Source: an uncultured delta proteobacterium (GTDB lineage Bacteria > Desulfobacterota > Desulfomonilia > UBA1062). Taken from it: a stretch of 64,000 nucleotides of DNA. The DNA is taken from contig CAWAUM010000010.1 in assembly GCA_963785235.1 (NCBI GenBank), positions 128,001-192,000 of the forward strand, written 5' to 3'. A program made the position numbers and the translations under genes. Positions 21,444 to 34,368 of this stretch are shown here, one piece after another (the stretch's first letter is position 1; every line of letters begins with the position of its first letter). Under the pieces are notes generated by a model. It made no database searches. It saw only the letters and a list, made by a program, of their open reading frames with translations, and was not told where the DNA came from.

Positions 21444-21914
21444 ATGACGAATCTGATCTCTGCTGAAGGCTTGATAAAACTGCAAAATGAATATAACCAC
21501 CTCTGGAAAGTGGAACGCCCTAAGGTTGTGCAGGGGGTTGCTGACGCCGCTGCTGAGGGTGACCGTTCGGAGAATGCAGAATACATCTATGGTAAAAAGA
21601 GGCTGCACGAGATTGACCGCAAATTGAGACACCTGGGTTCTCGCCTCAAGGTGCTGAAAGTGGCCGTTCCTCCTTCAAAACCAACAATGGTTTCATTCGG
21701 ATGTTGGGTCACGTACACAGAGGAGACAGGAGATGAACGCTGTTATCAACTGGTCGGCCCTGAGGAGATAGATGTCAGCATCGGCAGGATCAGTATCGAT
21801 TCACCTATTGGCCAGGCGCTGTTGCACAAAAAGCTTGATGATGAAGTAATTTTTCATAAGCCTAACGGCAAGATAACGGTTTATATTACCGGGATATACT
21901 CTACCAGGCCGTAA
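21444..21914 (+). CDS. greB: Transcription elongation factor GreB
   Basis: LWKVERP, AAAEGDRSENAEYIYGKKRL, ISIDSPIGQAL. Confidence 0.92.
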   Translation: MTNLISAEGLIKLQNEYNHLWKVERPKVVQGVADAAAEGDRSENAEYIYGKKRLHEIDRKLRHLGSRLKVLKVAVPPSKPTMVSFGCWVTYTEETGDERCYQLVGPEEIDVSIGRISIDSPIGQALLHKKLDDEVIFHKPNGKITVYITGIYSTRP

Positions 21915-21994
21915 TTGTTCATCTCCTCATGACGTTTATTGAGGGAGACTATCACCTTTGTTCGGGCAGGCTTTCGAAATAAACAGGGTATGTC

Positions 21995-22255
21995 TTAGAC
22001 CCAATATGCCTTTACTCCCTTGGCAATCATTTCATTAAAAATCCCCTGGGCCTCAAGCCTTTCATAGATCTTTCCCGGGTCACTCAATGTCAGATAATGA
22101 TCGCAGTCCTCGTTGGGGCAGCCTGCCCTTACCCATTTGAATACCCTTGCTGCCCTGTGCACGGAGGGGCGTATGTCCGACCAGAAGATATCGCTCTTGC
22201 ATTTCTCGCACTTGAAGTAATAAACAGCGTTTTCATTTTCTTTGCATTTCTTCAT
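21995..22255 (-). CDS. Small hypothetical zinc-finger-like protein
   Basis: CEKC ... CPNEDC. Confidence 0.6.
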   Translation of the reverse strand: MKKCKENENAVYYFKCEKCKSDIFWSDIRPSVHRAARVFKWVRAGCPNEDCDHYLTLSDPGKIYERLEAQGIFNEMIAKGVKAYWV

Positions 22256-22370
22256 TCGAACTCATCAAAACCTCCATATGCCAACTTATTGAAAACTATA
22301 CTACCATCATAATCACGACATCAGCTCGGTCAATAGCTTTGCTGATAAAGATCCAATCACAAGTCTGAGG

Positions 22371-22811
22371 TTAAGATGTTTGTCTTTCTGATTCTTGCTT
22401 TTCAAACTCTGCCCCGCACTTCCTGCACTTGGCTATGTCAGGGTAGTTGAGGCTTCCACAGTCCGAGCAGACATAGATGGTTCCGGTGCCGCTGCCGGAA
22501 ATGGTCCCGGTATAGGGAAGACCGTTAGCGGCCTTCAGGAGTCTGATGATCTCGGACAGGGCGCCAAAGATGACAAAGAGGATGAGGCCGGCCATTAAAA
22601 TGGCTATGCCGACTGCCAGCAGGGAGAGCTTGCCAATGGCAAGGCCCGCGATGATGCACGCCAGGACACCGACAATGCCGGACACAAGGCACAGGCGGGA
22701 TAACACGCTCAAGCCGGCCTCTTTGCCCTGTATGTCTTTATATTCCTGCCGGAGGATCCTGGCCTTTGGGACAGGGGCTTCATTGGAAACGGTATTATCT
22801 TCAGGACTCAT
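22371..22811 (-). CDS. Membrane protein with C-terminal zinc ribbon
   Basis: GAGGTG RBS; two TM helices; CSDC...CRKC. Confidence 0.7.
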   Translation of the reverse strand: MSPEDNTVSNEAPVPKARILRQEYKDIQGKEAGLSVLSRLCLVSGIVGVLACIIAGLAIGKLSLLAVGIAILMAGLILFVIFGALSEIIRLLKAANGLPYTGTISGSGTGTIYVCSDCGSLNYPDIAKCRKCGAEFEKQESERQTS

Positions 22812-22856
22812 ATTTCTCACCTCTTAGGACTGTCCGCAGTACGTTAAAGACAGATG

Positions 22857-24138
22857 CTACTCCCGCTCATCCACCACCATGGAGCTGCCTTTGAATGCCG
22901 AAGAAGGGACGATCCTCACGCCTATACGCACGCTGGTGCCCGTATGGAGCGCCTTTTCGAGATTCTCCATAAAGGCCTTCTGCGCCCTCATTTCATCGAA
23001 GAACAGCTTCTCTCCCACCTCAAGCAGGACATCGGCCCGCTCAAAAGGGCCTTCCCGGTATATGCGGACCTGGCTCCTGGTCTCCACCCCTTCGGCCTTG
23101 AGGATCTGGAGGATCCGCCCGGGAGATACGCTGACACCCTTGATCTTGATGGTGTCATCCAGCCTGCCGTAAAAGTCCTCGAGCCTCATATGGGTTCTGC
23201 CGCAGGGGCACACCCCTTGTTTTATCATGGTGATGTCGCCGGTGCGGTAGCGGATCAGGGGGAAGGCCTCGCGCATGAGGGTTGTTATCACGAGCTCGCC
23301 TTTTTTGTCCGGGCCCAGCACCTCGCCGGTATCCGGGTCTACGACCTCGGCAATGAAGAAGTCCTCATACACGTGCATGCCCGTCATGCGCGCTGCACTC
23401 ACCTGCTATGCCCGGCCCCATGACCACGCTGGACCCATAGCTGTTGAACACCTCCACGCCAAGGCCCTGCTCGATCTTGGCCCTCACCGCCGGGCTCAAC
23501 CGGTCAGCGCCCAGGATGGCCCGCCTGAGGCGGAGTGTCTTGGGGTTGATGTTCATCTGGTTGATCCTGTCCAGCAGGATAAGCGCATAACCCGGGGTAC
23601 AGGCTATGACGGTGGTGAGATAGTCGTGCATGATCATGACCTGCTCTGCGGTATTGCCGATGTCGGCGGGGATGACGGATGCGCCGATAAGCTCGGCTGC
23701 GGCGTGGAAGCCGAACCCGCCGGTCATGAGGCCGTAGCGGAAGGCGATCTGGATCACGTCGTCCTTTGAGATGCCCGCCCCCACCAGGAACCTGGCCATG
23801 AGCCTGGCCCATGCCCTCAGGTCGCCTGCCGTATAGCCGGTGACGATGGGCTTGCGCGCCTGGCCGGAAGAGGTATGGATGCGCACTACCTCGCGCAGCG
23901 GCACGGCGAACATATCATAGGGATAGCCCTTCTCGATATCGGCCCTGGTGGTAAAGGGCAGGTTCTTGATGTCGGAAAGCGACTTCACGGCATCAGGCAG
24001 GATGCCTGCAGCATCAAGGGCCCTGCGGTAGTGGGCGACATTCAGATATGCCCTGTTCAGCGTGGACTGGAGTCGTTCGAGCTGAAAGACCTCCAGCTCG
24101 CTGCGCGGCATAGTCTCGTAGAGCGTTTCATGCATCAT
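22857..24138 (-). CDS. Phenylacetate--CoA ligase family protein, second divergent paralog (frameshift near 23400)
   Basis: LPFTT, YPYDMFAVP, YGLMTGGFG, PLIRYRTGD, GRLDD; degenerate P-loop HTSSGQARKP. Confidence 0.85.
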
Positions 24139-24906
24139 ACTATCTCCCCTCCCAGATAGGCTTCCAAGACCCTGGGGTCTTTCCGGATCTCGCCCGGAAG
24201 CACCCGAGCAGAGCACCCGGCCTTCAGTCATGACCACAATGCGGTCGCAGATGTCCATGATGAGGTTCATGTCATGCTCGATGATTACAACAGTCAGGTC
24301 CAGCTCACCTTTAAGCCTCACGATGAGCTCGGAGATTTCCTGGGTCTCCTTGGGGTTCATGCCGGCCGCAGGTTCATCCAGGAATATGATGGCGGGCCTG
24401 GCGGCCAGGGCCCTGGCAATCTCCACCCTGCGCTGATTGCCGTAGGACAGGCTCACTGCGGCTTCATGGGCCAGATCCGCTATGCCGAGCCGGTCAAGCA
24501 GTGCGAGCGATTCTTCCATGAGCGTCTTCTCTTCTTTCCGCTTTCCCCATGTGCAGAGCATGCTGCGCCAGTAGCCTGCCTTGAGTGTGCTGTGCCCCCC
24601 CACCATGACATTTTCCAGCACGCTCATGTCACGGAATATCTCAAGGTTCTGAAAGGTCCTGGCCATGCCGAGCCTGACCCTGCGGTGAGGCATGAGCCTT
24701 GTGATGGCATGGCCGCTGAACTCTATGCGCCCGGTATCCGCATCAAACAGCCCGGTGAGCACGTTGAACAGGGTGGTCTTGCCCGCCCCGTTGGGACCGA
24801 TGACACCGAGGATCTCGCCCTTGACCACATCAATGGACACATCGCTCAAGGCATGGATGCCCATGAAGCTCTTGGAGAGCGAGACCGCCTTGAGGATCAT
24901 TCCCAT
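24135..24906 (-). CDS. Branched-chain amino acid-type ABC ATP-binding protein (LivG-like), frameshift near 24195
   Basis: GPNGAGKT, LSYGNQRR, FLDEP; true C-terminus EIRKDPRVLEAYLGGEIV-stop is in an alternative frame. Confidence 0.88.
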
Positions 24907-25627
24907 ACCTCCTGGTAGCCCTTGCCGAGGTATGCCCTCTGGATCTCATTGCTCTGGCCCAGTTCGTCGGATTGACCTTCCATGACGATACGGCCGGTCT
25001 CAATGACATATCCGCGGTGAGCCAGGTTCAGTGCCAGCCTGGCGTTCTGCTCCACAAGCAGGATGCTCATGCCTTCCTTGGTGTTCAAATGCCTGATCTG
25101 TTCATAGATCTGGCTCGTGACAATGGGGGCGAGCCCCATGGAAGGCTCATCCAGGAGCAGCACCTTGGGCCTGGCCATGAGCGCCCTGGCAATGGCCAGC
25201 ATCTGCTGTTCGCCGCCCGAGAGTGTCCCTGCGAGCTGGCCTTCTCCTCTGCCCGAGGATGGGGAACAGGCGTTCCATATCCTCGATGTCGCTTTTTATC
25301 TTTGCCTTGTCCCTGCGGGTGTATGCGCCCAGCATCATGTTGTCCCGCACGCTCAGGCCCCTGAAAAGCCTCCTGCCCTCGGGCACATGCCCGATACCGT
25401 TTTTCAGGATGCGCTCCGGGCTCAACGATGTGATCTGCTCCCCTTCGAGGAGGATATCGCCGGATTGCTGCCTTCACGATCCCTGAAACGGCCCGCAGGA
25501 TGGTGCTCTTGCCCGCGCCGTTGCCGCCTATGAGCGCCACGATCTCACCTGGCATCACATGCAGCGACACGCCCTTTACCGCGTGGATGTGTCCATAGTA
25601 GGTGTGCAGGTTCCTGAGCTGGAGCAC
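24897..25627 (-). CDS. Branched-chain amino acid-type ABC ATP-binding protein (LivF-like), frameshifted
   Basis: GGNGAGKST, GHVPEGRRLF, LLLDEPSMGLAP, LVEQNA. Confidence 0.88.
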
Positions 25628-26493
25628 TATTTCTTCCTCCCGAACATCTCGGTGATCTTGACCCTGCCCATGATGCCCTGGGGCCTGAAGACCATCATGA
25701 CCACGAGCAGCGCCCCGTAGAAGATGTCCTGGTAATCGGCCAGGGGCCTAAGATTTCAGGCAGCAGAATAAGCAGCGTAGCCCCCAGAAGCGATCCGGTG
25801 ATGCTCCCGATGCCGCCCAGGACCACCATGGAAAGGATCATGATGGAGGTATGCATGCCGAACGTCTGCGGGTTTATATAGGCCGTGTAATGGGCATACA
25901 GGCTTCCTGCAAGGCCCGCCCAGAAGGAGCTGGTGATGAAGGCCAGCGCCTTGTAATAAGAGATATTGATGCCCATGAACATGGCCACGACATCGTTATC
26001 CCGGATGGCGGCCCAGGCCCTGCCGATCTTGGACTGTTTGAGCGTGTAATGCTGACAGGATCATCACAACAAGGATAGCCGTTGTAAGGCCCAGGAACGC
26101 CGACTTGGAGTAGACCGGCTTGCCCCACAAGGTCACCGGCGGTATCCCCACCAGGCCGTCGGGCCCGCCGGTGATATCGAGGTTCATGAAGACCAGGCTG
26201 ATGATGATGCCGAACCCGAGGGTGACAATGGCCAGGTAGTCGTCCTTTACCCGCAGCGCAGGCAGGGCAAGGCAAAGACCCAGAACGGAAGTAATGATGC
26301 CTGCGAGAAAAAACGCGCTCACAAAGCCGAGCCCCTTTATCATGAGAAGGCCGCTTACATATGCGCCGATGCCGAAGAATGCCGCATGCCCCAGCGACAC
26401 AAGCCCGGCAAAGCCTACGATGATATTCAGGCTCAAGGCCAGGATCGCGTAGATGGCCACCATGATGAGCACATGAAGGATGTAGATGCTCAT
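25627..26493 (-). CDS. Branched-chain amino acid-type ABC permease (LivM-like), frameshifted
   Basis: SLNIIVGFAGLVSLGHAAFFGIGAY, YLAIVTLGFG, ITGGPDG, MVVLGGIGS. Confidence 0.88.
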
Positions 26494-27351
26494 TTGCGCG
26501 ACCCCATGATGCCCCGCGGCCGGATGATGAGCACGAGCACGAGCGCGATAAAGGCAAAGGCATCCTTGAAGTTCGACGAGATGTATGCAGCCCCGAGGTT
26601 CTCGGCAATGCCCAGCACGAGGCCGCCGATGATGGCCCCGGGGATGGACCCGACCCCGCCCAGGATCGCCGCGGAAAAGGCCTTCAGCCCGGGCAGCAGC
26701 CCCATGCTGGGCGAGGTGGCATTGTAGTAGACCGCCATGAGGATGCCCGCCACCCCGCTCAAGGCCGAGCCGAGGAGAAAGGTGATCACATAGGCACTGT
26801 TCACATTGATGCCGGAAAGCCTTGCCGCATCGCTGTCCATGGCAACGGCCATGATGGCCTTGCCGTGTTTGGTCATGTTGACGAAGAGCGACAGCATCAC
26901 CATGAGACCGAAGGAGACGCCCGATGATGATGAGCTGCAGATCCGGTAATCTCGGCAGCGCCGAAAATGGTGTAGCTTGCCGGATTGAATTCATGGGGAA
27001 AGGACCGGTCATCGGGACCGAAGAGGAGCCGGGCCAGCGAGCTCAAAATATGGATGCGCCGATGGCGCTGATGAGCGGTATCAGGGGGTGCATGCCGCGC
27101 AGCGGCCTGAACGCGATCCGCTCCAGGAGAAACCCCACCAGGCATGCCGTGCCGATGCCCGCCAGCATCGCCAGGCCCAGGTCTCCGGTTGCAGCAAGAG
27201 TGAGTACGGCGCCGAAGGCGCCGAACATGTAGATCTCACCCTGGGCAAAATTGATGATGCCCAGGATGCCGAAAATCATGGTGTAGCCCAGGGCGACCAG
27301 CGCATACACGCTGCCCGCCACAAGGCCGTTTACAAGCTGCTGAATCAGCAC
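26490..27351 (-). CDS. Branched-chain amino acid-type ABC permease (LivH-like), frameshifted
   Basis: QQLVNGLVAGSVYALVALGYTMIFG..INFAQG, KAFSAAILGG. Confidence 0.88.
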
Positions 27352-27352
27352 A

Positions 27353-28478
27353 TTACTGGACCTTTACGTATTTCCCGTTCACCACCTTGAAGAGATACAC
27401 GCCCTGCTTGACCACATCGCCGTTCTTGTCGAAGCTGAGCTTTCCGGTAACGCCGTCAAAGTCCTTCACGCGTGTCCAGATAGCCCTTGATGCCGTCAGG
27501 GTATTGCCCTTTCTCGGCAATGGCCTTGGCCACCATCCTGGTCATGTCATAGGTGATGGCGGCAAACATGATGTTGTTGGTCTCTTGGCGGTTGGCCTTT
27601 ACGATCTTGTAGTATTCGGCCTTGAACTTCTTGTTGGTAGGGGTGTTGTAGTCCTCGTTGTATTCGCTGGCATTCACATGGCCTTCTGCAGCCTTGCCTG
27701 CGAGCTCGATATATTTGGGGGCCATGTCGCCGTACACGCCCATGGAAACGGCATTGATGCCCATCTTGCGGGCCTGGGAAATGGCAGGCGCGGTCTCCTG
27801 GAGATAGCCGGGGATGAAGATGAGGTCAAACTGGTTCTGCTTGATCTTGGTGAGCTGGGCGGAAAAATCGCGGTCGCCGACCATGAAGCTCTCGGCAATG
27901 ACAACAGGGATGCCCAGATCGCCGAAGAACTTGGTGAACAGATCGTTGCAGCCCTTGCCGTAGGGCTCATTGCTGTACAGGATGGCAACCTTTGTTGTCT
28001 TCATGTACGTCTTTGGCATATTTGGTCAAGGCCTCGGCCTGCTTGTCGATCCTGGTGCAGCCGCGGTAGAATATCGCCCGCATCGGAGATCTTCGGCGAT
28101 GTGCCGTTGGGCGTGATGACAACGATCTTGTCTCGCTGCGGCAATGGGCGCCACGGCCAGGACCTCGCCGCTCATCATGGGGCCGATGACCACCTGGACC
28201 TTGTCCATGGAGATGAGCTTCTGGAATGCGCTCACCGAGGCCTGGGGGGAATCCTTGCTGTCTTCATAGATGACTATCAGGGGCTTGCCCTTGATGCCGC
28301 CTGCAGCATTGATCTCTTTGACGGCGATCTCGATGCCGCGCTTTGCCGGTAGGCCGTCGGATGCGCCGATGGAAAGCCGCAGGATGGCCCCGATCTTGAT
28401 GTCCTCTGCCTCTGCCTCAGAGATACCCATGCACAGAACACACATGCACAATGCCCACACCAACAAAAACTTCTTCAT
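27353..28478 (-). CDS. LivJ/K-type ABC substrate-binding protein, frameshifted
   Basis: Signal peptide, EINAAGGIKGK, VIGPMMSG, DFSAQLTKIK, FDGVTGKLSFDKNGD. Confidence 0.85.
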
Positions 28479-28552
28479 CTTCTTCCTCCTTCTTTTAACT
28501 AGCAAAGTTATCCGTAAGAACCCAATAAATAATTCATGGGTGTTCTTATGTA

Positions 28553-28984
28553 TTAAAGGTTGTAGACCTGCTCGCCCTTCAACACGGTGAACCCTGCCTT
28601 CAGCAGGGCCTCGATGGCCTGGTCGATGTTGTCGAACCGGAAGATGATTACCGCATTCTCGCCGCTGCGCTCGACAAAGGCATACATGTATTCAACATTG
28701 ATGCCCTCCCTGGTGAGAAGGTCGAGGATGCTGTGAAGCCCGCCCGGCTTGTCCGGCACCTCTACGGCGATCACATGGGTCCGGCCCACGGCGAAACCGT
28801 TCTCGTTGAGCACCTTCTTGGCCTTGTTCACATCGTCCACGATGAGCCTCAAGATCCCGAAGTCGCTCGTGTCCGCCAGGGAGAGCGCCCGGATATTGAT
28901 GCCCGCGTCCTTGAGCACCTTCGTTACGCCCGAGAGCCCGCCGGGTTTATTCTCCAAAAAGATCGATATCTGTTCCACCTTCAT
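28553..28984 (-). CDS. Tandem ACT-domain amino-acid-binding protein
   Basis: [47 protein letters not shown]. Confidence 0.93.
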
Positions 28985-28998
28985 GACGAGACCTCCCC

Positions 28999-30301
28999 TT
29001 ACATGGTTCTCTTGTCAATCACCCGCTGGGCCTTGCCTTCGAACCGCTGCAGAGATTTCGGCTCCACAAGCTTTACCTTGGCCGAGATACCGATATAATC
29101 CTTGATGTCCTTCGCGATGCGCCGCTCAAGATTCTGCAGCTGCCTTATCTCATCCGAAAAGATCTTTTCGCTCACCTCAACCTGGATCTCCAGGGTGTCC
29201 AGCGACCCTTCCCTGTCCAGGATGAGCTGATAGTGAGGCTCCAGACCTTCTATCTCCATGATTACACTCTCGATCTGGGACGGGAAAACATTCACCCCCC
29301 GGATGATGAACATGTCGTCGCTCCGGCCCGATACCCGCTCCATGCGCACAAAGGTCCTTCCGCAGCGGCATACCTCGGGCATGAGCCTTGAGATGTCCTT
29401 GGTCCGGTACCTGATTAACGGGAAGGCCTCTTTGGTAAGCGTGGTGAACACGATCTCGCCTTTCTGGCCATAGGGAAGGACCTCACCGGTTGACGGGTCG
29501 ATGACCTCCACAATGAAGTTATCCTCAAAGATATGCAGACCGTTGCGGCCTTCGATACACTCCATGGCAACGCCCGGACCCATGATCTCGGACAGGCCGT
29601 AGATGTCGAGCGCCGTGATGTCGAGCCTGCCCTCTATCTCGCCGCGCATGCGCTCGCTCCAGGGCTCTGCGCCAAGGACCCCCACCCGGAGCCGCAGCGA
29701 CTTCATGTCCACGCCCATCTCCTCGCCGGTCTCGGCAAGGAACAGAAGGTACGATGGCGTGCAGCATATGGCAGTGGGGCCGAAGTCCTGCAGGATCATG
29801 ATCTGCTTCTTGGTGTTGCCGCCCGACATGGGAATGACGCTGGCGCCTAGCTTCTCGGCGCCGTAGTGCGCCCCAAGGCCGCCGGTGAACAGTCCGTAGC
29901 CATAGGCATTATGGATGATGTCGTTTTTCGTGAGACCTGCCGCTGCAAAGGAACGGGCCATGAGCTCGGCCCAGGTCTCGATGTCGCGCTTGGTGTAGGC
30001 GACGACAGTAGGCTTTCCCGTGGTGCCGGATGAGGCATGCAGCCTCACGATGTTGGTCATGGGCACGCTGAAGAGCCCGAAGGGATAGTTATCGCGCAGG
30101 TCCTGCTTATTGGAGAACGGCAGGCGGTTCAGGTCGGTCGAGGGTCCTGATGTCTTCCGGGGTGACGCCCGCCTCATCGAACTTCCTGCGGTAAAATCCC
30201 ACGGTGTGGTAGACGCGCTCCACCACGTTCTTGAGGCGTTTCAACTGCAAAGAGTCCAGCACCTCCCGGGGCAATGTCTCGAATTCCTCATTGTAGATCA
30301 T
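28999..30301 (-). CDS. paaK: Phenylacetate--CoA ligase (frameshift near 30140)
   Basis: [51 protein letters not shown]. Confidence 0.92.
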
Positions 30302-30330
30302 TCCTTAAAACCTCCTGGTAAGAAGATAAT

Positions 30331-30901
30331 TCACTGGACTTTCAATAGCCTTCCCTGCTTGAAGCCTTCTATATTCTTAAGCCTGATCTTCTCGGGGAGC
30401 ATATCGGTCAGGGTTTCTATCCAGAGCGACTCAGCAGGCTCGAGTAACGTTGAAAGCACACCCAGCAGGATAACGTTCACACCTCTGGCGTTGCCCAGCT
30501 CAGCCGCCAGGGCGCTGCCTTCAACGATACGGATATCACGAGCCTTTTCTTTCAGGATCGGGGTGATGTCCGGATATGGCTCCTTTCCAACAATGACCGT
30601 AGGCGGAGAGAGCCGGAACCTGTTGATGATCACGGTGGTATCAGATTTGATATACGGTCATATATCGTGCTGTCTCCAGCTCCTCAAATGACAGCAGGAT
30701 GTCGCAGCTGCCATAGGGGATAAGGGGCGATGCAACATGCTTGGCAAATCGCACATGAGACATGACGCTCCCGCCTCGCTGGGCCATGCCGTGTATCTCG
30801 GACTTCTTCACATCCAGGCCATGGCGCATCATCACTTCGGTCAGTACATCAGAGGCAAGGATGATGCCCTGTCCTCCGACTCCGGTCATGAGCACATTCA
30901 T
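30331..30901 (-). CDS. iorB: Indolepyruvate:ferredoxin oxidoreductase beta subunit (frameshift near 30650)
   Basis: MNVLMTGVGGQGIILAS, SEIHGMAQRGGSV, LGNARGVNVILLG. Confidence 0.9.
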
Positions 30902-32626
30902 TTTCCACCTCCGATGGCACTTACGCTGCAGAGGTCTGCGCATACATTACAACCCACACAAGCCTCGTTAATATGCGCCTTCTCGTCTTTGAATTCAAGA
31001 GCCGGACAACCCAGCGTAATGCACACCTTGCAGCCCGTGCACTTGCCGGCATCCACGTATAAAGGTATGCCCGGAACCCCCTTTGCCTTGAGCAGGACAC
31101 ACGGGGCCTTTGAGATGATGACCGAGGGACCGCTCGGAGGCCAGGGCCTCTTTTACGGTCTGCCTCGCCCCTTTGACATCGTAGGGGTTGATGGTCTTTA
31201 CCCACTCGATACCGAGCGCCTTCACCAGGCCTTCAAGGTCTATCGTGGTGTTTTTCTGCCCCTCAATGGTGACGCCTGTACCCGGGTGGTTCTGTGCCCC
31301 GGTCATGGCCGTGGTCCGGTTGTCCAGGATCACGATCAATGCCGCGCCCCGGTTATACGCGAGGTTTAATAGACCCGTGATGCCGGAATGGTAGAAGGTG
31401 GAATCGCCTATGACCGCAGTGAGCTTTTCCTTGCCCGGTCCGAACACCTTTGACATGCCGTGGGCGTGGTTGATGCCTGCGCCCATGCACAGGCACGTGT
31501 CAATGGCATCCAGCGGCGGTAAAAAGCCCAGGGTGTAGCAGCCGATATCACCGGCGATGAATGTTTTATTCCGCCGCAGTGCCCATAACATGCTGCGGTG
31601 AGGGCAACCCGGGCACATGGAAGGCGGCCTTCCGGGCAGCGCTGGTTGGGCGGGCTTCACCACAGGCTCGCCTGAGATGGCGGCCTTGATGATGTCCGGG
31701 TTCAGCTCCCCGCACATGGATATACGGTCTTTGCCATGACAGGAAAGACCTAAGGCCTTTACCTGATCTTCCATAAAAGGATCCAGCTCTTCCACGACCC
31801 ACAACTCTTTCACCTTGGAAGCGAAATCCTTAACCATCTCATCCGGGAAGGGGTACGGCATGCCGAGCTTCAGATAGGAGGCCTTGGGGAAGGCCTCTTT
31901 TGCATATTGATACGCCACCCCTGATGAGATGATTCCCAGCCCTGTGTCGGCAATCTCCATACGGTTCATGTCAGAGGTGTTGGACAGTTTCTTCAGGGCA
32001 AGGATGCGCTCTTCAATGACAGGGTGACGACGCCTGGCATTTGCAGGCAGCATGACCCACTCGGCCGGGTGCCGTTCCAGGCTGGGGATTTTTTGTGCCA
32101 AGGGCTCGGACAGCTCCACAATACCCATGGAGTGTGCGATCCGTGTGGTGGTGCGCACCATGACGGGAGTGCCGAATTCCTCGCTGATGGCAAAGGCCTC
32201 CCTTGTGAAATCCTTTGCCTCCTGCGAACTTGAAGGCTCAAGCATGGCGATCTTGGCAAACCTGGCATAATGCCGGTTGTCCTGCTCATTCTGGGAGGAG
32301 AACAACTCGGGGTCATCCGCGCTGATGAGCACTATACCACCTCGTATAAGGGTATATGGCAATGTCATGAGCGGGTCTGCCGCCACATTCACCCCTACAT
32401 GCTTCATGACTGCCAATGCCCGTGCGCCTGTGTACGATGCACCCACAGCCACTTCCAGGGCAACCTTCTCGTTGGGCGCCCATTCGGAATGGATGTCTTT
32501 GTATTCTTTTGCCATTGTTTCAAGGATCTCGGTGCTGGGTGTGCCGGGATATGCTGCGGCAAAAGAAATACCTGCCTCATACGCACCCCGTGCCACCGCC
32601 TCATTGCCGCTGAGGATCTTCTTCAT
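30898..32626 (-). CDS. iorA: Indolepyruvate:ferredoxin oxidoreductase alpha subunit (frameshifts near the 3' end)
   Basis: GNEAVARGA, YPGTPSTE, MKHVG, MCPGCPHR, GDIGCY, TPP motif GDSTF..LDN, C-terminal ferredoxin Cys motifs. Confidence 0.93.
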
Positions 32627-32652
32627 AGGTCATCCCTCTCCTGGCTCAAAAT

Positions 32653-32684
32653 AAAAAAAGGCCATGGGTTTTGCCCATGGCCTT
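32653..32684 (-). terminator. Attenuator intrinsic terminator upstream of iorA
   Basis: Minus strand AAGGCCATGGG-CAAAA-CCCATGGCC followed by T7, ending about 27 nt before the iorA ATG. Confidence 0.9.
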
Positions 32685-32710
32685 GTCTGTTAGCTTACCG
32701 GCAACCAGGC

Positions 32711-32779
32711 CTATGGGCAAACGCCCTTCCTAAAGTAAAAGCCGTAATAATAAGCCCGGGTTGCTGTCTTTTCGAACAT
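32711..32779 (-). CDS. Tyr/Phe-rich attenuator leader peptide MFEKTATRAYYYGFYFRKGVCP
   Basis: Manual translation; 6 of 7 consecutive codons are Tyr/Phe; overlaps an antiterminator arm; TTGACA at 32815-32810 upstream. Confidence 0.85.
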   Translation of the reverse strand: MFEKTATRAYYYGFYFRKGVCP

Positions 32780-33138
32780 CGCTTTGTATTTCCACGTACA
32801 GGGGCTCTCTGTCAAGAGGTTTTTCAAGACTGATCAAAAGGCTTGAGTAAAGAAATCACCATGGCCATGGAATTGTTTTTTAAAGTTAGAGCCGCCAAGT
32901 GTCATGTCCTGGTAAACAAGGCATAGCCATTGAGGGGAAATTTATCTCGTTGGCCCCTTTTTATCTTATCCCGGCAATGTGATTTTACTGCATTTTATGA
33001 AGATGCAACTCACTATGGGCTTGCATTTCAAGCAGAATTATGCTAAATGATAGTATTCCGATTAAAACAGCATGGAAGATGACACGATCGGATGCTCTAT
33101 ACAGTATCATTTTAATGTGATGACGGGAGGGATACCCA

Positions 33139-34368
33139 ATGAAAAAAGCATCATGCCTGATTTTATTAATGGCCCTTTTTGTCAGTGCCTGCAGCACGAG
33201 CAATAACTCTGTTTCCCTTATACAGAATAAAGACTATCAGCATGCCCTCATGGAGATACTTCCCATTGCCGAGCAGGGAAATGCCCAAGCCCAGTATAAC
33301 CTTGGACTCATGTATATCAATGCATGGGGGGTGTCTCAGGATTTTCTCAAGTCAGCCAGATGGTTCCAGAAGGCAGCGGAAAACGGTAACGTGGATGCCC
33401 AGTTCAATCTGGGAATCATGTATTATAAAGGCATGGGAGTTACACGCAACTATGCCGAAGCTGCCAAATGGTTCACCGAGGCCTCGGAACAGGGTTATGT
33501 AAAGGCGCAGAGCAATCTCGGATTCATGTATTACAGGGGTCTGGGCGTCAAGCAGGACTATGGAAAGGCTGAAAAGTGGTACCGCAAGGCTGCAAATCAA
33601 GGTGATGTGGAGGCCCAAAGGCGCCTGGGAAATATCTATTATCATGGAAAGGATATAGCCCAGGATCTGAAAGAGGCTGCTCGTTGGTACCGCAAGGCCG
33701 CGGATCAAGGCAATGTTGAATCACAGAGCATTCTCGGAGACATCTACAGTAACGGAGCGGGTGTAGCAAAAAACTATGCAGAGGCCATCAAGTGGTACTC
33801 CCTGGCTGCCATACAGGGGAATACCCATTCCCAGAGCAGCCTTGGGTTTATTTATCTCAACGGCGAGGGCGTGCATCAAAATTTTTCCGATGCCGCCTAC
33901 TACTTCCGCATGGCTGCAGAGCAGGGTAATAACCTTTCACAGGGTTATGTCGGTTATTTCTATGACCACGGCCTGGGCGTGCCTCAGGACTATACTGAGG
34001 CAGCCAAGTGGTATCTCATGGCAGCCGAACAGGGTGATGCCGTCATTCAGTTCAACCTCGGCCTCCTGTACTCGAGCGGCAAGGGCGTCCAGCAAAACTA
34101 CGAAGAGGCTGCCAAGTGGTTTCAGAAGTCTGCAGAGCAAGGTTACGACAAGGCTTTGTACAACTTAGGGCTTCTGTACAGCAACGGCAACGGGGTACCA
34201 AAGGATTATATGCAGGCCTATTTATGTTTCAAACTCGCAGCTGAACAAGGTATTGAGACTGCAAACACCTATCTCGAAACCATGGCACAACAGATGACGC
34301 CCGCCCAGATTGCGCAGGCGCAGGAAATGGCAAAGGCATGGAAGCAGCCGGCAAGCTCTGCGAATTGA
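33139..34368 (+). CDS. Sel1-like repeat (TPR) lipoprotein
   Basis: Lipobox VSAC; about 9 tandem 36-aa repeats AQxNLGxMYxxGxGVxQDYxEAxKWYxKAAEQG. Confidence 0.93.
   Translation: MKKASCLILLMALFVSACSTSNNSVSLIQNKDYQHALMEILPIAEQGNAQAQYNLGLMYINAWGVSQDFLKSARWFQKAAENGNVDAQFNLGIMYYKGMGVTRNYAEAAKWFTEASEQGYVKAQSNLGFMYYRGLGVKQDYGKAEKWYRKAANQGDVEAQRRLGNIYYHGKDIAQDLKEAARWYRKAADQGNVESQSILGDIYSNGAGVAKNYAEAIKWYSLAAIQGNTHSQSSLGFIYLNGEGVHQNFSDAAYYFRMAAEQGNNLSQGYVGYFYDHGLGVPQDYTEAAKWYLMAAEQGDAVIQFNLGLLYSSGKGVQQNYEEAAKWFQKSAEQGYDKALYNLGLLYSNGNGVPKDYMQAYLCFKLAAEQGIETANTYLETMAQQMTPAQIAQAQEMAKAWKQPASSAN

Follow-up and report, generated by a model that had tools for sequence, protein, structure and literature searches.

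Organization of the ior-paaK-liv locus

The window analysed here comprises 64,000 nucleotides of contig CAWAUM010000010.1 from an uncultured delta proteobacterium (assembly GCA_963785235.1, genome G000 below). Its minus strand carries an operon which begins with a short leader peptide and continues in the order iorA, iorB, paaK1, a gene for an ACT-domain pair, livK, livH, livM, livF, livG and paaK2, and then a small eleventh gene. These encode an indolepyruvate:ferredoxin oxidoreductase (IOR), two enzymes of the phenylacetate-coenzyme A (CoA) ligase family, and an ABC transporter of the Liv type. The comparison with related loci suggests that the locus is probably a salvage operon for aryl acids, which is induced by starvation for phenylalanine (Phe) and tyrosine (Tyr).

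The gene identities come from a Pfam scan of the minus-strand open reading frame (ORF) pieces and from an NCBIfam scan of the intact orthologues in the related locus L011. The iorA gene (30898..32626, alpha subunit) matched POR_N and TPP_enzyme_C, and a +1 insertion near 31133 shifts its C-terminal ferredoxin-like part. The iorB gene (30331..30901, beta subunit) is divided into two ORFs by a +1 insertion near 30657, both of which matched POR; it was also found as two pieces in the search of the window's own genome. The IorA of L011 is about 90% identical to the frame-corrected IorA of the window and passed the equivalog test, with a score of 745.5 against the TIGR03336 cut-off of 650.9. The IorB orthologue stayed slightly under the cut-offs of the best NCBIfam IOR-beta models (227.7 vs 237 and 222.7 vs 230), and reached that of Pfam POR. 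Reversible activity of IorAB toward arylpyruvates is predicted.

The first ligase gene, paaK1 (28999..30301), matched AMP-binding and AMP-binding_C_2, and a +1 insertion near 30138 shifts its first ~40 codons. Its L011 orthologue scored 639.8 against the TIGR02155 cut-off of 646.3, and the nearest solved structures are the phenylacetate-CoA ligases 2y27 (3e-155) and 4r1l. The second ligase gene, paaK2 (22857..24138, +1 insertion near 23379), matched AMP-binding_C_2; its orthologue scored 385-401 with the PaaK models, which is far below their cut-offs of 646-700 (385.2 vs 646.3 for TIGR02155). Between the two ligase genes are the intact gene of the 143-aa ACT-pair protein (28553..28984; Pfam ACT_8, 1.6e-28) and the five transporter genes. 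The periplasmic binding protein gene (27353..28478, Peripla_BP_6) has +1 insertions near 28005 and 27471 and a variable stretch at 28072-28139. The livH-type (26490..27351) and livM-type (25627..26493) permease genes each matched BPD_transp_2 on two pieces, with indels near 27046 (-1), 26942 (+1) and 26920 (+1) in the former and near 26049 (+1) and 25751 (-1) in the latter. Two ATPase genes (ABC_tran) follow, the order being LivF-like and then LivG-like according to NCBIfam: livF (24897..25627; best model LivF, under its cut-off; +1 insertions near 25468 and 25242) and livG (24135..24906), whose frame is joined to that of paaK2 in the raw ORF list by a +1 insertion near 24200.

The spacing of the ten genes in the intact orthologue L011 is -10 to +68 nt, with 84 nt before the conserved eleventh gene. 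In the window, this gene (22371..22820, minus strand, intact) starts 36 nt after paaK2 and encodes a membrane protein of 149 aa, whose C-terminus carries a zinc-ribbon motif; it gave a weak zf-ChsH2 match and no NCBIfam family. It is kept beside the operon in L009, L010, L011 and L012, including the two variants with a different transporter (L010 and L012, see below), and probably belongs to the operon. The preliminary description of this DNA had recorded ten tightly coupled same-strand genes behind an attenuator. The content, order, strand and coupling (in L011) agree with this, as does the attenuator at 32779-32648; the frames of nine of the ten genes are broken in the window itself.

Putative Phe/Tyr attenuator upstream of iorA

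The leader peptide ORF (32711..32779, minus strand; ATG at 32779), as read from the sequence, is MFEKTATRAYYYGFYFRKGVCP, with 22 codons plus TAG. Four Tyr and three Phe codons make 7 of its 22 codons aromatic. Upstream lies a -35-like TTGACA hexamer (32810..32815, minus strand), which is invariant in all five aligned relatives and occurs in all of the leaders listed; a consensus promoter scan listed no full promoter at this hexamer, and a -10 element could not be convincingly identified. Three pairing segments and a terminator follow on the same strand. Segment 1 (32750..32764; codons ACC CGG GCU UAU) overlaps the codons just ahead of and including the first Tyr codon, and pairs with segment 2 in the minimum free energy (MFE) fold of the untranslated leader. 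Segment 2 (32707..32719) has the core GCCCATAGGCC, which is invariant in 18 sequences, and holds the leader stop codon. Segment 3 (32672..32683), defined by fold and alignment, is both the left arm of the terminator and the 3' arm of the antiterminator. The intrinsic terminator (32648..32684) consists of an 11-bp stem (7 GC), a 5-nt loop and a T-run; it was the only strong minus-strand match of the terminator scan in 21800-33200, and ends 22 nt ahead of the iorA start.

The MFE of the full leader is -48.5 kcal/mol (z -2.97; 1 of 200 shuffles was as good), and in this fold the 1:2 helix and the terminator form. A stalled ribosome was modelled by removing the RNA that it covers and folding the remainder up to the terminator loop. 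In 9 of 9 leaders, stalling at the aromatic codons gave the 2:3 antiterminator (-18.5 to -30.5 kcal/mol). The alignment of 18 distinct sequences, from which L015 (without terminator or leader) and L019 (non-aromatic leader) were left out, also retains both helices. Of the 196 terminator cells, 98.0% are paired, and one compensatory pair occurs (A-U in 13, G-C in 5); of the 216 antiterminator cells, 95.8% are paired, and a single pair is altered on both sides. When the partner was slid by 1-3 columns as a control, the pairing dropped to 20-63%. The covariation support for the helices is modest, because most of the core pairs never vary and are hence uninformative. Every one of the 18 sequences has the leader stop codon within segment 2.

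These features indicate that a ribosome-mediated Phe/Tyr leader-peptide attenuator precedes iorA. When charged tRNA-Tyr and tRNA-Phe are plentiful, the ribosome would reach the leader stop codon in segment 2, and segments 3 and 4 would form the terminator. A ribosome stalled on the YYYGFYF codons would cover segment 1 instead, so that segment 2 could pair with segment 3 and transcription would continue. Read-through should therefore rise when Phe and Tyr are scarce: as with the classical pheA and pheST leaders, the operon would be transcribed under scarcity of the charged tRNAs. The control by Phe/Tyr starvation proposed in the preliminary description is thus corroborated by mutually exclusive terminator and antiterminator helices, which are kept in 18 distinct sequences.

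The enterobacterial pheA (pheL) and pheST leaders likewise have a short ORF with a regulatory run of aromatic codons, the 1:2, 2:3 and 3:4 alternatives, and a terminator before the first gene. The present leader differs in its mixed Tyr and Phe codons (Tyr only in some relatives), and in its targets, which are genes for salvage and transport instead of those for de novo biosynthesis or a tRNA synthetase. It also differs in lacking a match to an Rfam leader family: the window gave no Rfam match at the gathering score, and the region 32550-32900 gave only chance-level matches to unrelated families at E<=10. The literature covered, which did not extend to subscription journals, yielded no account of a leader peptide or an attenuator in front of iorA or paaK.

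Conservation and natural variants of the leader

The leader was found at the same place in L009-L014, L016 and L078. The 12 further loci examined all show a T-run together with a short in-frame ORF, in which 5-9 residues are Phe or Tyr and the remaining sequence drifts. Each of the 20 other loci read in this way (8+12, some of the sequences being identical) has 5-9 aromatic residues in its leader, in stretches such as GFLFFSYMYF, NFTFFLSFF, KFYFYFCFF, LYYYYFY and AYRYVYYY; tryptophan is nearly missing, with one residue among the 12 further leaders. The conserved Phe/Tyr richness of peptides that otherwise diverge is a stronger argument for an attenuator than the covariation. A search for the core pattern, in which 15-45 nt separate segments 2 and 3, matched 27 of the 52 genomes of the family and 9 of its 14 genera, and the reversed control gave 0.

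Two genomes, G044 and G023, have the operon split on two contigs, with iorAB-paaK1-ACT and livKHMFG-paaK2 each behind its own attenuator (L142-L145). The leaders of the ior units are Phe-rich (MQTRALTKFYFYFCFFRPGRCP and MNFTFFLSFFRPGRCP); those of the liv units are Tyr-rich (MRNYACIQAYRYVYYYRKKRCP, MLRYAFTQAYYCGFFYGMGGCP and, in G043, MTTHACIRAYRYGYYYREGRCP). The three liv-type units give only a hint that Liv and PaaK2 might serve tyrosine supply through 4-hydroxyphenylacetate. In L019 (7240-7530), a more distant relative, the terminator before iorA follows a short ORF without aromatic enrichment (MFMSDNSFFRTLSG...), which may represent a different sensor; L015 has neither terminator nor leader before iorA.

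A second aromatic leader, MATRILTNNSFGFFFFD, is located in G000 on contig C1 (8290-15325, minus strand; L146), with a strong terminator (-23 kcal/mol) 77 nt later. Downstream is a Liv-type ABC system (Peripla_BP_6, two ATPases and two permeases) with an embedded 650-aa AMP-binding ligase. The genome-wide leader scan of G000 also gave three weaker candidates (one on C4 and two on C7); the candidate C7:31591 was dropped, as no coherent gene lies downstream on its strand.

Direction of the pathway

IOR, PaaK and Liv genes in the genomes and metagenomes of anaerobes are routinely read as peptide fermentation and branched-chain amino-acid uptake. A catabolic operon of this kind would use IOR to oxidise Phe, Tyr or arylpyruvates to arylacetyl-CoA and PaaK to activate imported aryl acids, and both would feed anaerobic degradation or fermentation. 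The usual annotation follows the role of IOR in peptide fermentation, and there are reports of such use. According to PMC5109826, Desulfococcus multivorans forms an IorAB paralogue specifically with phenylpyruvate, and the same text calls a TRAP system of Desulfobacula toluolica phenylalanine/phenylacetate-importing; PMC13285125 describes IOR catabolism in C. difficile. The leader argues for the opposite direction. Attenuation at Phe/Tyr codons would turn the operon on under scarcity, which is the opposite of a catabolic need, and a starvation-sensing leader is direct sequence-level evidence that the genes are wanted when Phe and Tyr are short.

The ligases point the same way. PaaK enzymes are AMP-forming and spend ATP; beside such a ligase, the conversion by IOR of an acid through its CoA thioester to a 2-oxo acid is sensible, whereas an ATP-yielding fermentation is not, as the ligase would waste the ATP that the fermentation of arylacetyl-CoA yields. 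The iorAB genes lie upstream of paaK1-ACT in about 44 of the 80 loci compared, many of which end short upstream. Furthermore, no protein of G000 was over the cut-off of TIGR03200, the model of the ring-opening hydrolase BamA/Oah of the benzoyl-CoA pathway (best score 93 vs 464 bits), and the same holds for all 12 other genomes of the genus, seven of which are at least 97% complete (several 97-100%). In the sister family, 7 of 8 genomes have this hydrolase. The genus is therefore unlikely to degrade phenylacetyl-CoA completely by the known route. The doubt expressed earlier about the usual catabolic annotation of these genes is thus supported: with the TIGR03200 protein unseen in G000 and in 12 of 12 further genomes, a role in ring degradation is unlikely. 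The IorAB of D. multivorans and D. toluolica belong to the same enzyme family, and these related Desulfobacterota are described as having TRAP importers for phenylalanine or phenylacetate; however, the aromatic ring is degraded there, whereas the present genus is without the BamA/Oah marker and the operon appears to be wired to starvation. The catabolic explanation is considered very unlikely on this evidence.

Reductive carboxylation of phenylacetate has an older record in rumen bacteria. Methanococcus maripaludis uses aryl acids for the synthesis of aromatic amino acids by way of IOR (Porat et al. 2004, cited in PMC4162585). The pathway of that archaeon runs from the aryl acid to arylacetyl-CoA, by IOR to the arylpyruvate, and on to the amino acid, beside the de novo route, and the one proposed here would be alike in all these respects. 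It differs in being bacterial and in having a dedicated importer, two PaaK ligases, an ACT protein and a Phe/Tyr attenuator in one operon, features that the citing text does not describe for the archaeon. Nothing on an anabolic IOR was found in PMC11304471.

Substrate of the transporter

The preliminary description left the Liv-like system to carry either aryl acids or aromatic amino acids. The related loci favour the former. In L010, L012 and L079, the Liv and PaaK2 module after the attenuator-iorAB-paaK1-ACT unit is replaced by a TRAP DctPQM system (L010:11723-14700, L012:12060-14988), and TRAP systems carry organic acids. The nearest solved relatives of the TRAP binding protein in the swapped loci are 4n6d, 4pgn/4pgp and 4nap (2e-52 to 5e-49). 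We take 4pgn, 4pgp and 4nap to be the protein Dde_0634, which presumably has an ior/paaK neighbourhood of its own. If the assignment of these codes is right, the TRAP binding protein that takes the place of Liv in the three loci has Dde_0634 as its nearest solved relative; the window differs in that it has no TRAP binding protein. Dde_0634 was reported to bind indole-3-acetate (PMC9973260), and the EFI screen (PMC5812351) names 'indole acids' among the TRAP ligands.

The binding pocket of the Liv-type protein gives a second argument. Glu226 of LivJ is assumed here, from the LivJ and LivK structures, to bind the ammonium group of the ligand. The aligned residue is Tyr in the binding proteins of the window, L009 and L011. 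Those of Geobacter-type ior/paaK clusters have His there (31 of 31), and the second Liv-type system of G000 (C1, L146) has Trp. E, D or (one entry) N occupies the position in LivJ and LivK and in the five nearest solved amino-acid binders. Among the ior/paaK-linked binding proteins counted, 2 of 2 in the window clade have Tyr and the 31 others have His, and the acidic residue is replaced in 33 of 33. With the carboxylate contacts kept and the amine contact lost, provided that Glu226 has the assumed role, the pocket would fit an aryl acid or a 2-oxo acid. The system shares the five-component ABC architecture and the Pfam families with LIV-I (LivJ/LivK-HMGF) of E. coli; it differs in the Tyr at the Glu226 position, in an operon shared with CoA ligases, and in that all five proteins are below the NCBIfam cut-offs (LIV-I membership of the binding protein failed, NF011933 155 vs 477). 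Moreover, livKHMFG stays with the CoA ligase gene paaK2 in the split genomes and appears to be starvation-induced there, which suggests that the transporter imports a compound that needs CoA activation.

Alternatively, the Liv-type system might import Phe and Tyr themselves; the aryl acids would then enter otherwise or arise internally, and IOR and PaaK would have an unrelated function. The binding protein of the window clade is indeed nearer to solved amino-acid binders (8e-41 to 3e-28; best 4gnr, 8e-41) than to the 'extracellular ligand-binding receptor' entries (1e-15 to 1e-11), which are presumably the aromatic-acid binders of Rhodopseudomonas, and that of the window keeps the positions of LivJ Ser79, Thr102, Tyr150 and Tyr202. 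E. coli LIV-I/LivK transports Phe as well, RefSeq labels livJ, livK, livH, livM, livG and livF of E. coli as 'branched chain amino acid/phenylalanine' transporter parts, and a starvation-induced importer of amino acids would be equally logical. However, the conserved acidic residue is gone in all 33 ior/paaK-linked binding proteins, a TRAP carboxylate transporter fills the same operon slot in three loci, and the liv genes travel with paaK2 behind their own attenuator when the operon is split, which an amino-acid importer would not need. Import of Phe and Tyr thus seems unlikely, and the transported compound is more likely to be a carboxylic acid than an amino acid. Of the two cargoes first suggested, the acid is favoured by the TRAP swap, the liv-paaK2 unit and the lost acidic residue, and the amino acid is disfavoured.

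The ACT-pair protein

The ACT-pair protein passed the Pfam test for ACT_8 with 99.7 bits against a gathering score of 23.5, and its nearest solved structure is 2f06 (1.7e-43), an entry named 'conserved hypothetical protein'. Its gene adjoins paaK1 in 77 of the 80 loci. A co-fold was computed from the PaaK1 orthologue of L009 (64-row alignment) and the ACT protein of the window (65-row alignment), for which the tool reports 64 rows per chain. The score was 0.35 against 0.00 for the best of three controls, and this result was graded as weak support; the runs agree in at least 97% of the contacts, and the predicted local distance difference test (pLDDT) of the partner is at least 86. In the calibration, 116 of 157 solved complexes reached the mark, as did 2 of 215 mismatched pairs; at <=0.60, only 18 of the 157 solved complexes reached it, along with both of the passing mismatches. 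These counts are only roughly valid here, as own alignments were used. A regulatory contact of the ACT protein with PaaK is plausible in this model, and the adjacency and the co-fold lend weak support to a function as feedback sensor.

Frameshifts in the assembly

Only the ACT gene among the ten named genes, together with the eleventh gene, has an intact frame in the window. The other nine genes contain 14 single-base frameshifting indels, namely 12 +1 insertions and two -1 deletions at the positions given above, and none of the 14 is present in any of the five aligned relatives (L008-L012). One explanation would be that the operon of this organism is a recently inactivated pseudogene cluster in which all 14 indels are real. 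With 14 indels in about 9.8 kb (~1.4 per kb), the operon is about fourfold above the genome's mean for coding DNA, 0.36 per kb. This mean comes from 60 frameshift clusters counted in the 164.9 kb that lie within open frames (at least 200 aa) of G011, the closest relative. In addition, 5.7 kb of neighbour genes compared with L094 had zero indels, and the paaK2 break near 23379 is common to the separate assembly L009 (L009:16722-16759), so that some of the damage could be real. The shared break could reflect a true common mutation, or an error that sequencing at this site reproduces.

The substitutions do not resemble decay. In the orthologue frames, the window differs from L009 by 545 synonymous, 212 nonsynonymous and 0 stop-creating codons in 3197 codons, and from L011 by 1104 synonymous, 365 nonsynonymous and one stop-creating codon; this is a pattern of purifying selection, since the codon differences are mostly synonymous and substitution has created at most one stop. 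All 12 insertions are at non-homopolymer sites and match the genome-wide +1 bias (40 of the 60 clusters), whereas natural gene decay is usually deletion-biased. When non-coding DNA is included, 140 clusters were counted in 199 kb against G011, and local stretches also reach 1.4-1.8 per kb. The rpoB gene of G000 is intact, yet rpoC and a second POR gene (contig C1) are split as well, and perhaps tyrA. Short-read contigs of close relatives (three DNA metagenomes and one RNA library) lacked the extra base ('left out 1') at at least eight sites, those among the matches listed being 25242, 25467, 26919, 26942, 27471, 28006, 30136 and 30655, with both livF indels included. The 14 frameshifts are most likely assembly errors, as suggested by the selection pattern, the same defect across the genome, the contigs without the extra base, and a +1 bias unlike natural decay; a pseudogene cluster appears improbable.

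An alternative genetic code was ruled out as the cause of the broken frames, because the breaks are frame shifts and not in-frame stops. ORF-coverage statistics did not separate the frameshifted from the clean regions. Among the sequencing runs searched for the words of the window, none had half or more of them, and the best share was 0.21. The metatranscriptome X20 contains contigs that are 90-99% alike over parts of the operon, which were not taken as evidence of expression. Joints and loose ends among the short-read contigs, which stem from other organisms at 90% likeness, were disregarded. The gene calls of G000 call for frameshift-tolerant tools.

Proposed function and distribution

The salvage reading of the operon would proceed as follows. 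The Liv-type ABC system would import aryl acids such as phenylacetate and 4-hydroxyphenylacetate, and PaaK1 and PaaK2 would activate them to arylacetyl-CoA, consuming ATP and releasing AMP. IorAB, running in reverse with reduced ferredoxin and CO2, would then produce phenylpyruvate and 4-hydroxyphenylpyruvate, and an aminotransferase encoded elsewhere (for example beside pheA) would complete Phe and Tyr. The ACT-pair protein would probably act as an amino-acid-binding regulator of PaaK.

Such a salvage would not be the only source of the two amino acids. The preliminary description had proposed to look for missing pheA, tyrA or shikimate genes; this expectation failed, since G000 keeps pheA (CM_2+PDT+ACT), an adjacent class I/II aminotransferase gene, aroA, aroC and tyrA, the last as a PDH_N piece of 148 aa that was possibly cut by another indel. 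The salvage would therefore supplement, and not replace, the shikimate route. The aminotransferase adjoining pheA is a candidate for the last step, and no aromatic leader was found before pheA of G000. The biosynthetic direction claimed for the operon accordingly holds in part: starvation control and an acid substrate are argued by the attenuator, the TRAP swap and the pocket, whereas the operon is not the sole route to Phe and Tyr.

Several points weigh against this interpretation. The de novo genes listed above would make the salvage dispensable, and the operon is without an aminotransferase gene. Related Desulfobacterota use IorAB paralogues catabolically (PMC5109826), and the scan found no aromatic leader before the Geobacter-type clusters. 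For the transporter, they are the four retained pocket positions, the closeness to amino-acid binders, and the assumed role of Glu226; a docking paper lists other pocket residues and not Glu226. For the genes themselves, they are the high indel density and the paaK2 break shared with L009. The substrates, the direction of the IOR flux, the CO2 fixation and the regulation are, besides, all inferred from sequence.

The split genomes permit a further, more tentative reading, which we hold to have somewhat less than an even chance. There would be two separately sensed modules, fused in the window behind one mixed Tyr/Phe leader. The first would link a Phe-sensing attenuator to iorAB-paaK1-ACT, for the activation of phenylacetate and its ferredoxin-dependent, CO2-fixing carboxylation. 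The second would link a Tyr-sensing attenuator to livKHMFG-paaK2, as a dedicated importer and ligase for 4-hydroxyphenylacetate. By extension, the ior-paaK-ACT-liv clusters of Geobacterales and many other anaerobes would also be anabolic, and would turn aryl acids derived from fermentation, together with CO2, into Phe and Tyr by cross-feeding. Cultured Geomonas and Citrifermentans share the complete iorAB-paaK-ACT-livK(K)HMGF-paaK arrangement, as do metagenome-assembled genomes labelled Geobacter, Desulfuromonadales and others; the regulatory evidence covers the family of the window, and its extension to these other clusters is an inference.

The chemistry and the regulatory principle are each known. 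What is new is their combination, the re-reading of a misannotated cluster, and the split and swapped natural variants. If the salvage reading is true, a common gene cluster would be re-labelled, and the old physiology of aryl-acid reductive carboxylation would gain a defined bacterial operon and regulator. It would also describe a cross-feeding loop in sediments, in which fermenters excrete aryl acids that are then captured again together with CO2. Direct expression and testing is possible for the attenuator, the binding protein and both ligases, which are all small parts.

Flanking gene and base composition

Directly upstream of the attenuator is a divergent gene (33139-34368, plus strand) for a 409-aa lipoprotein-like protein with nine Sel1 repeats, which is kept in L009, L010 and G011. 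The G+C content of the operon region (22000-32000) is 56-58%, compared with 45-54% across most of the window.

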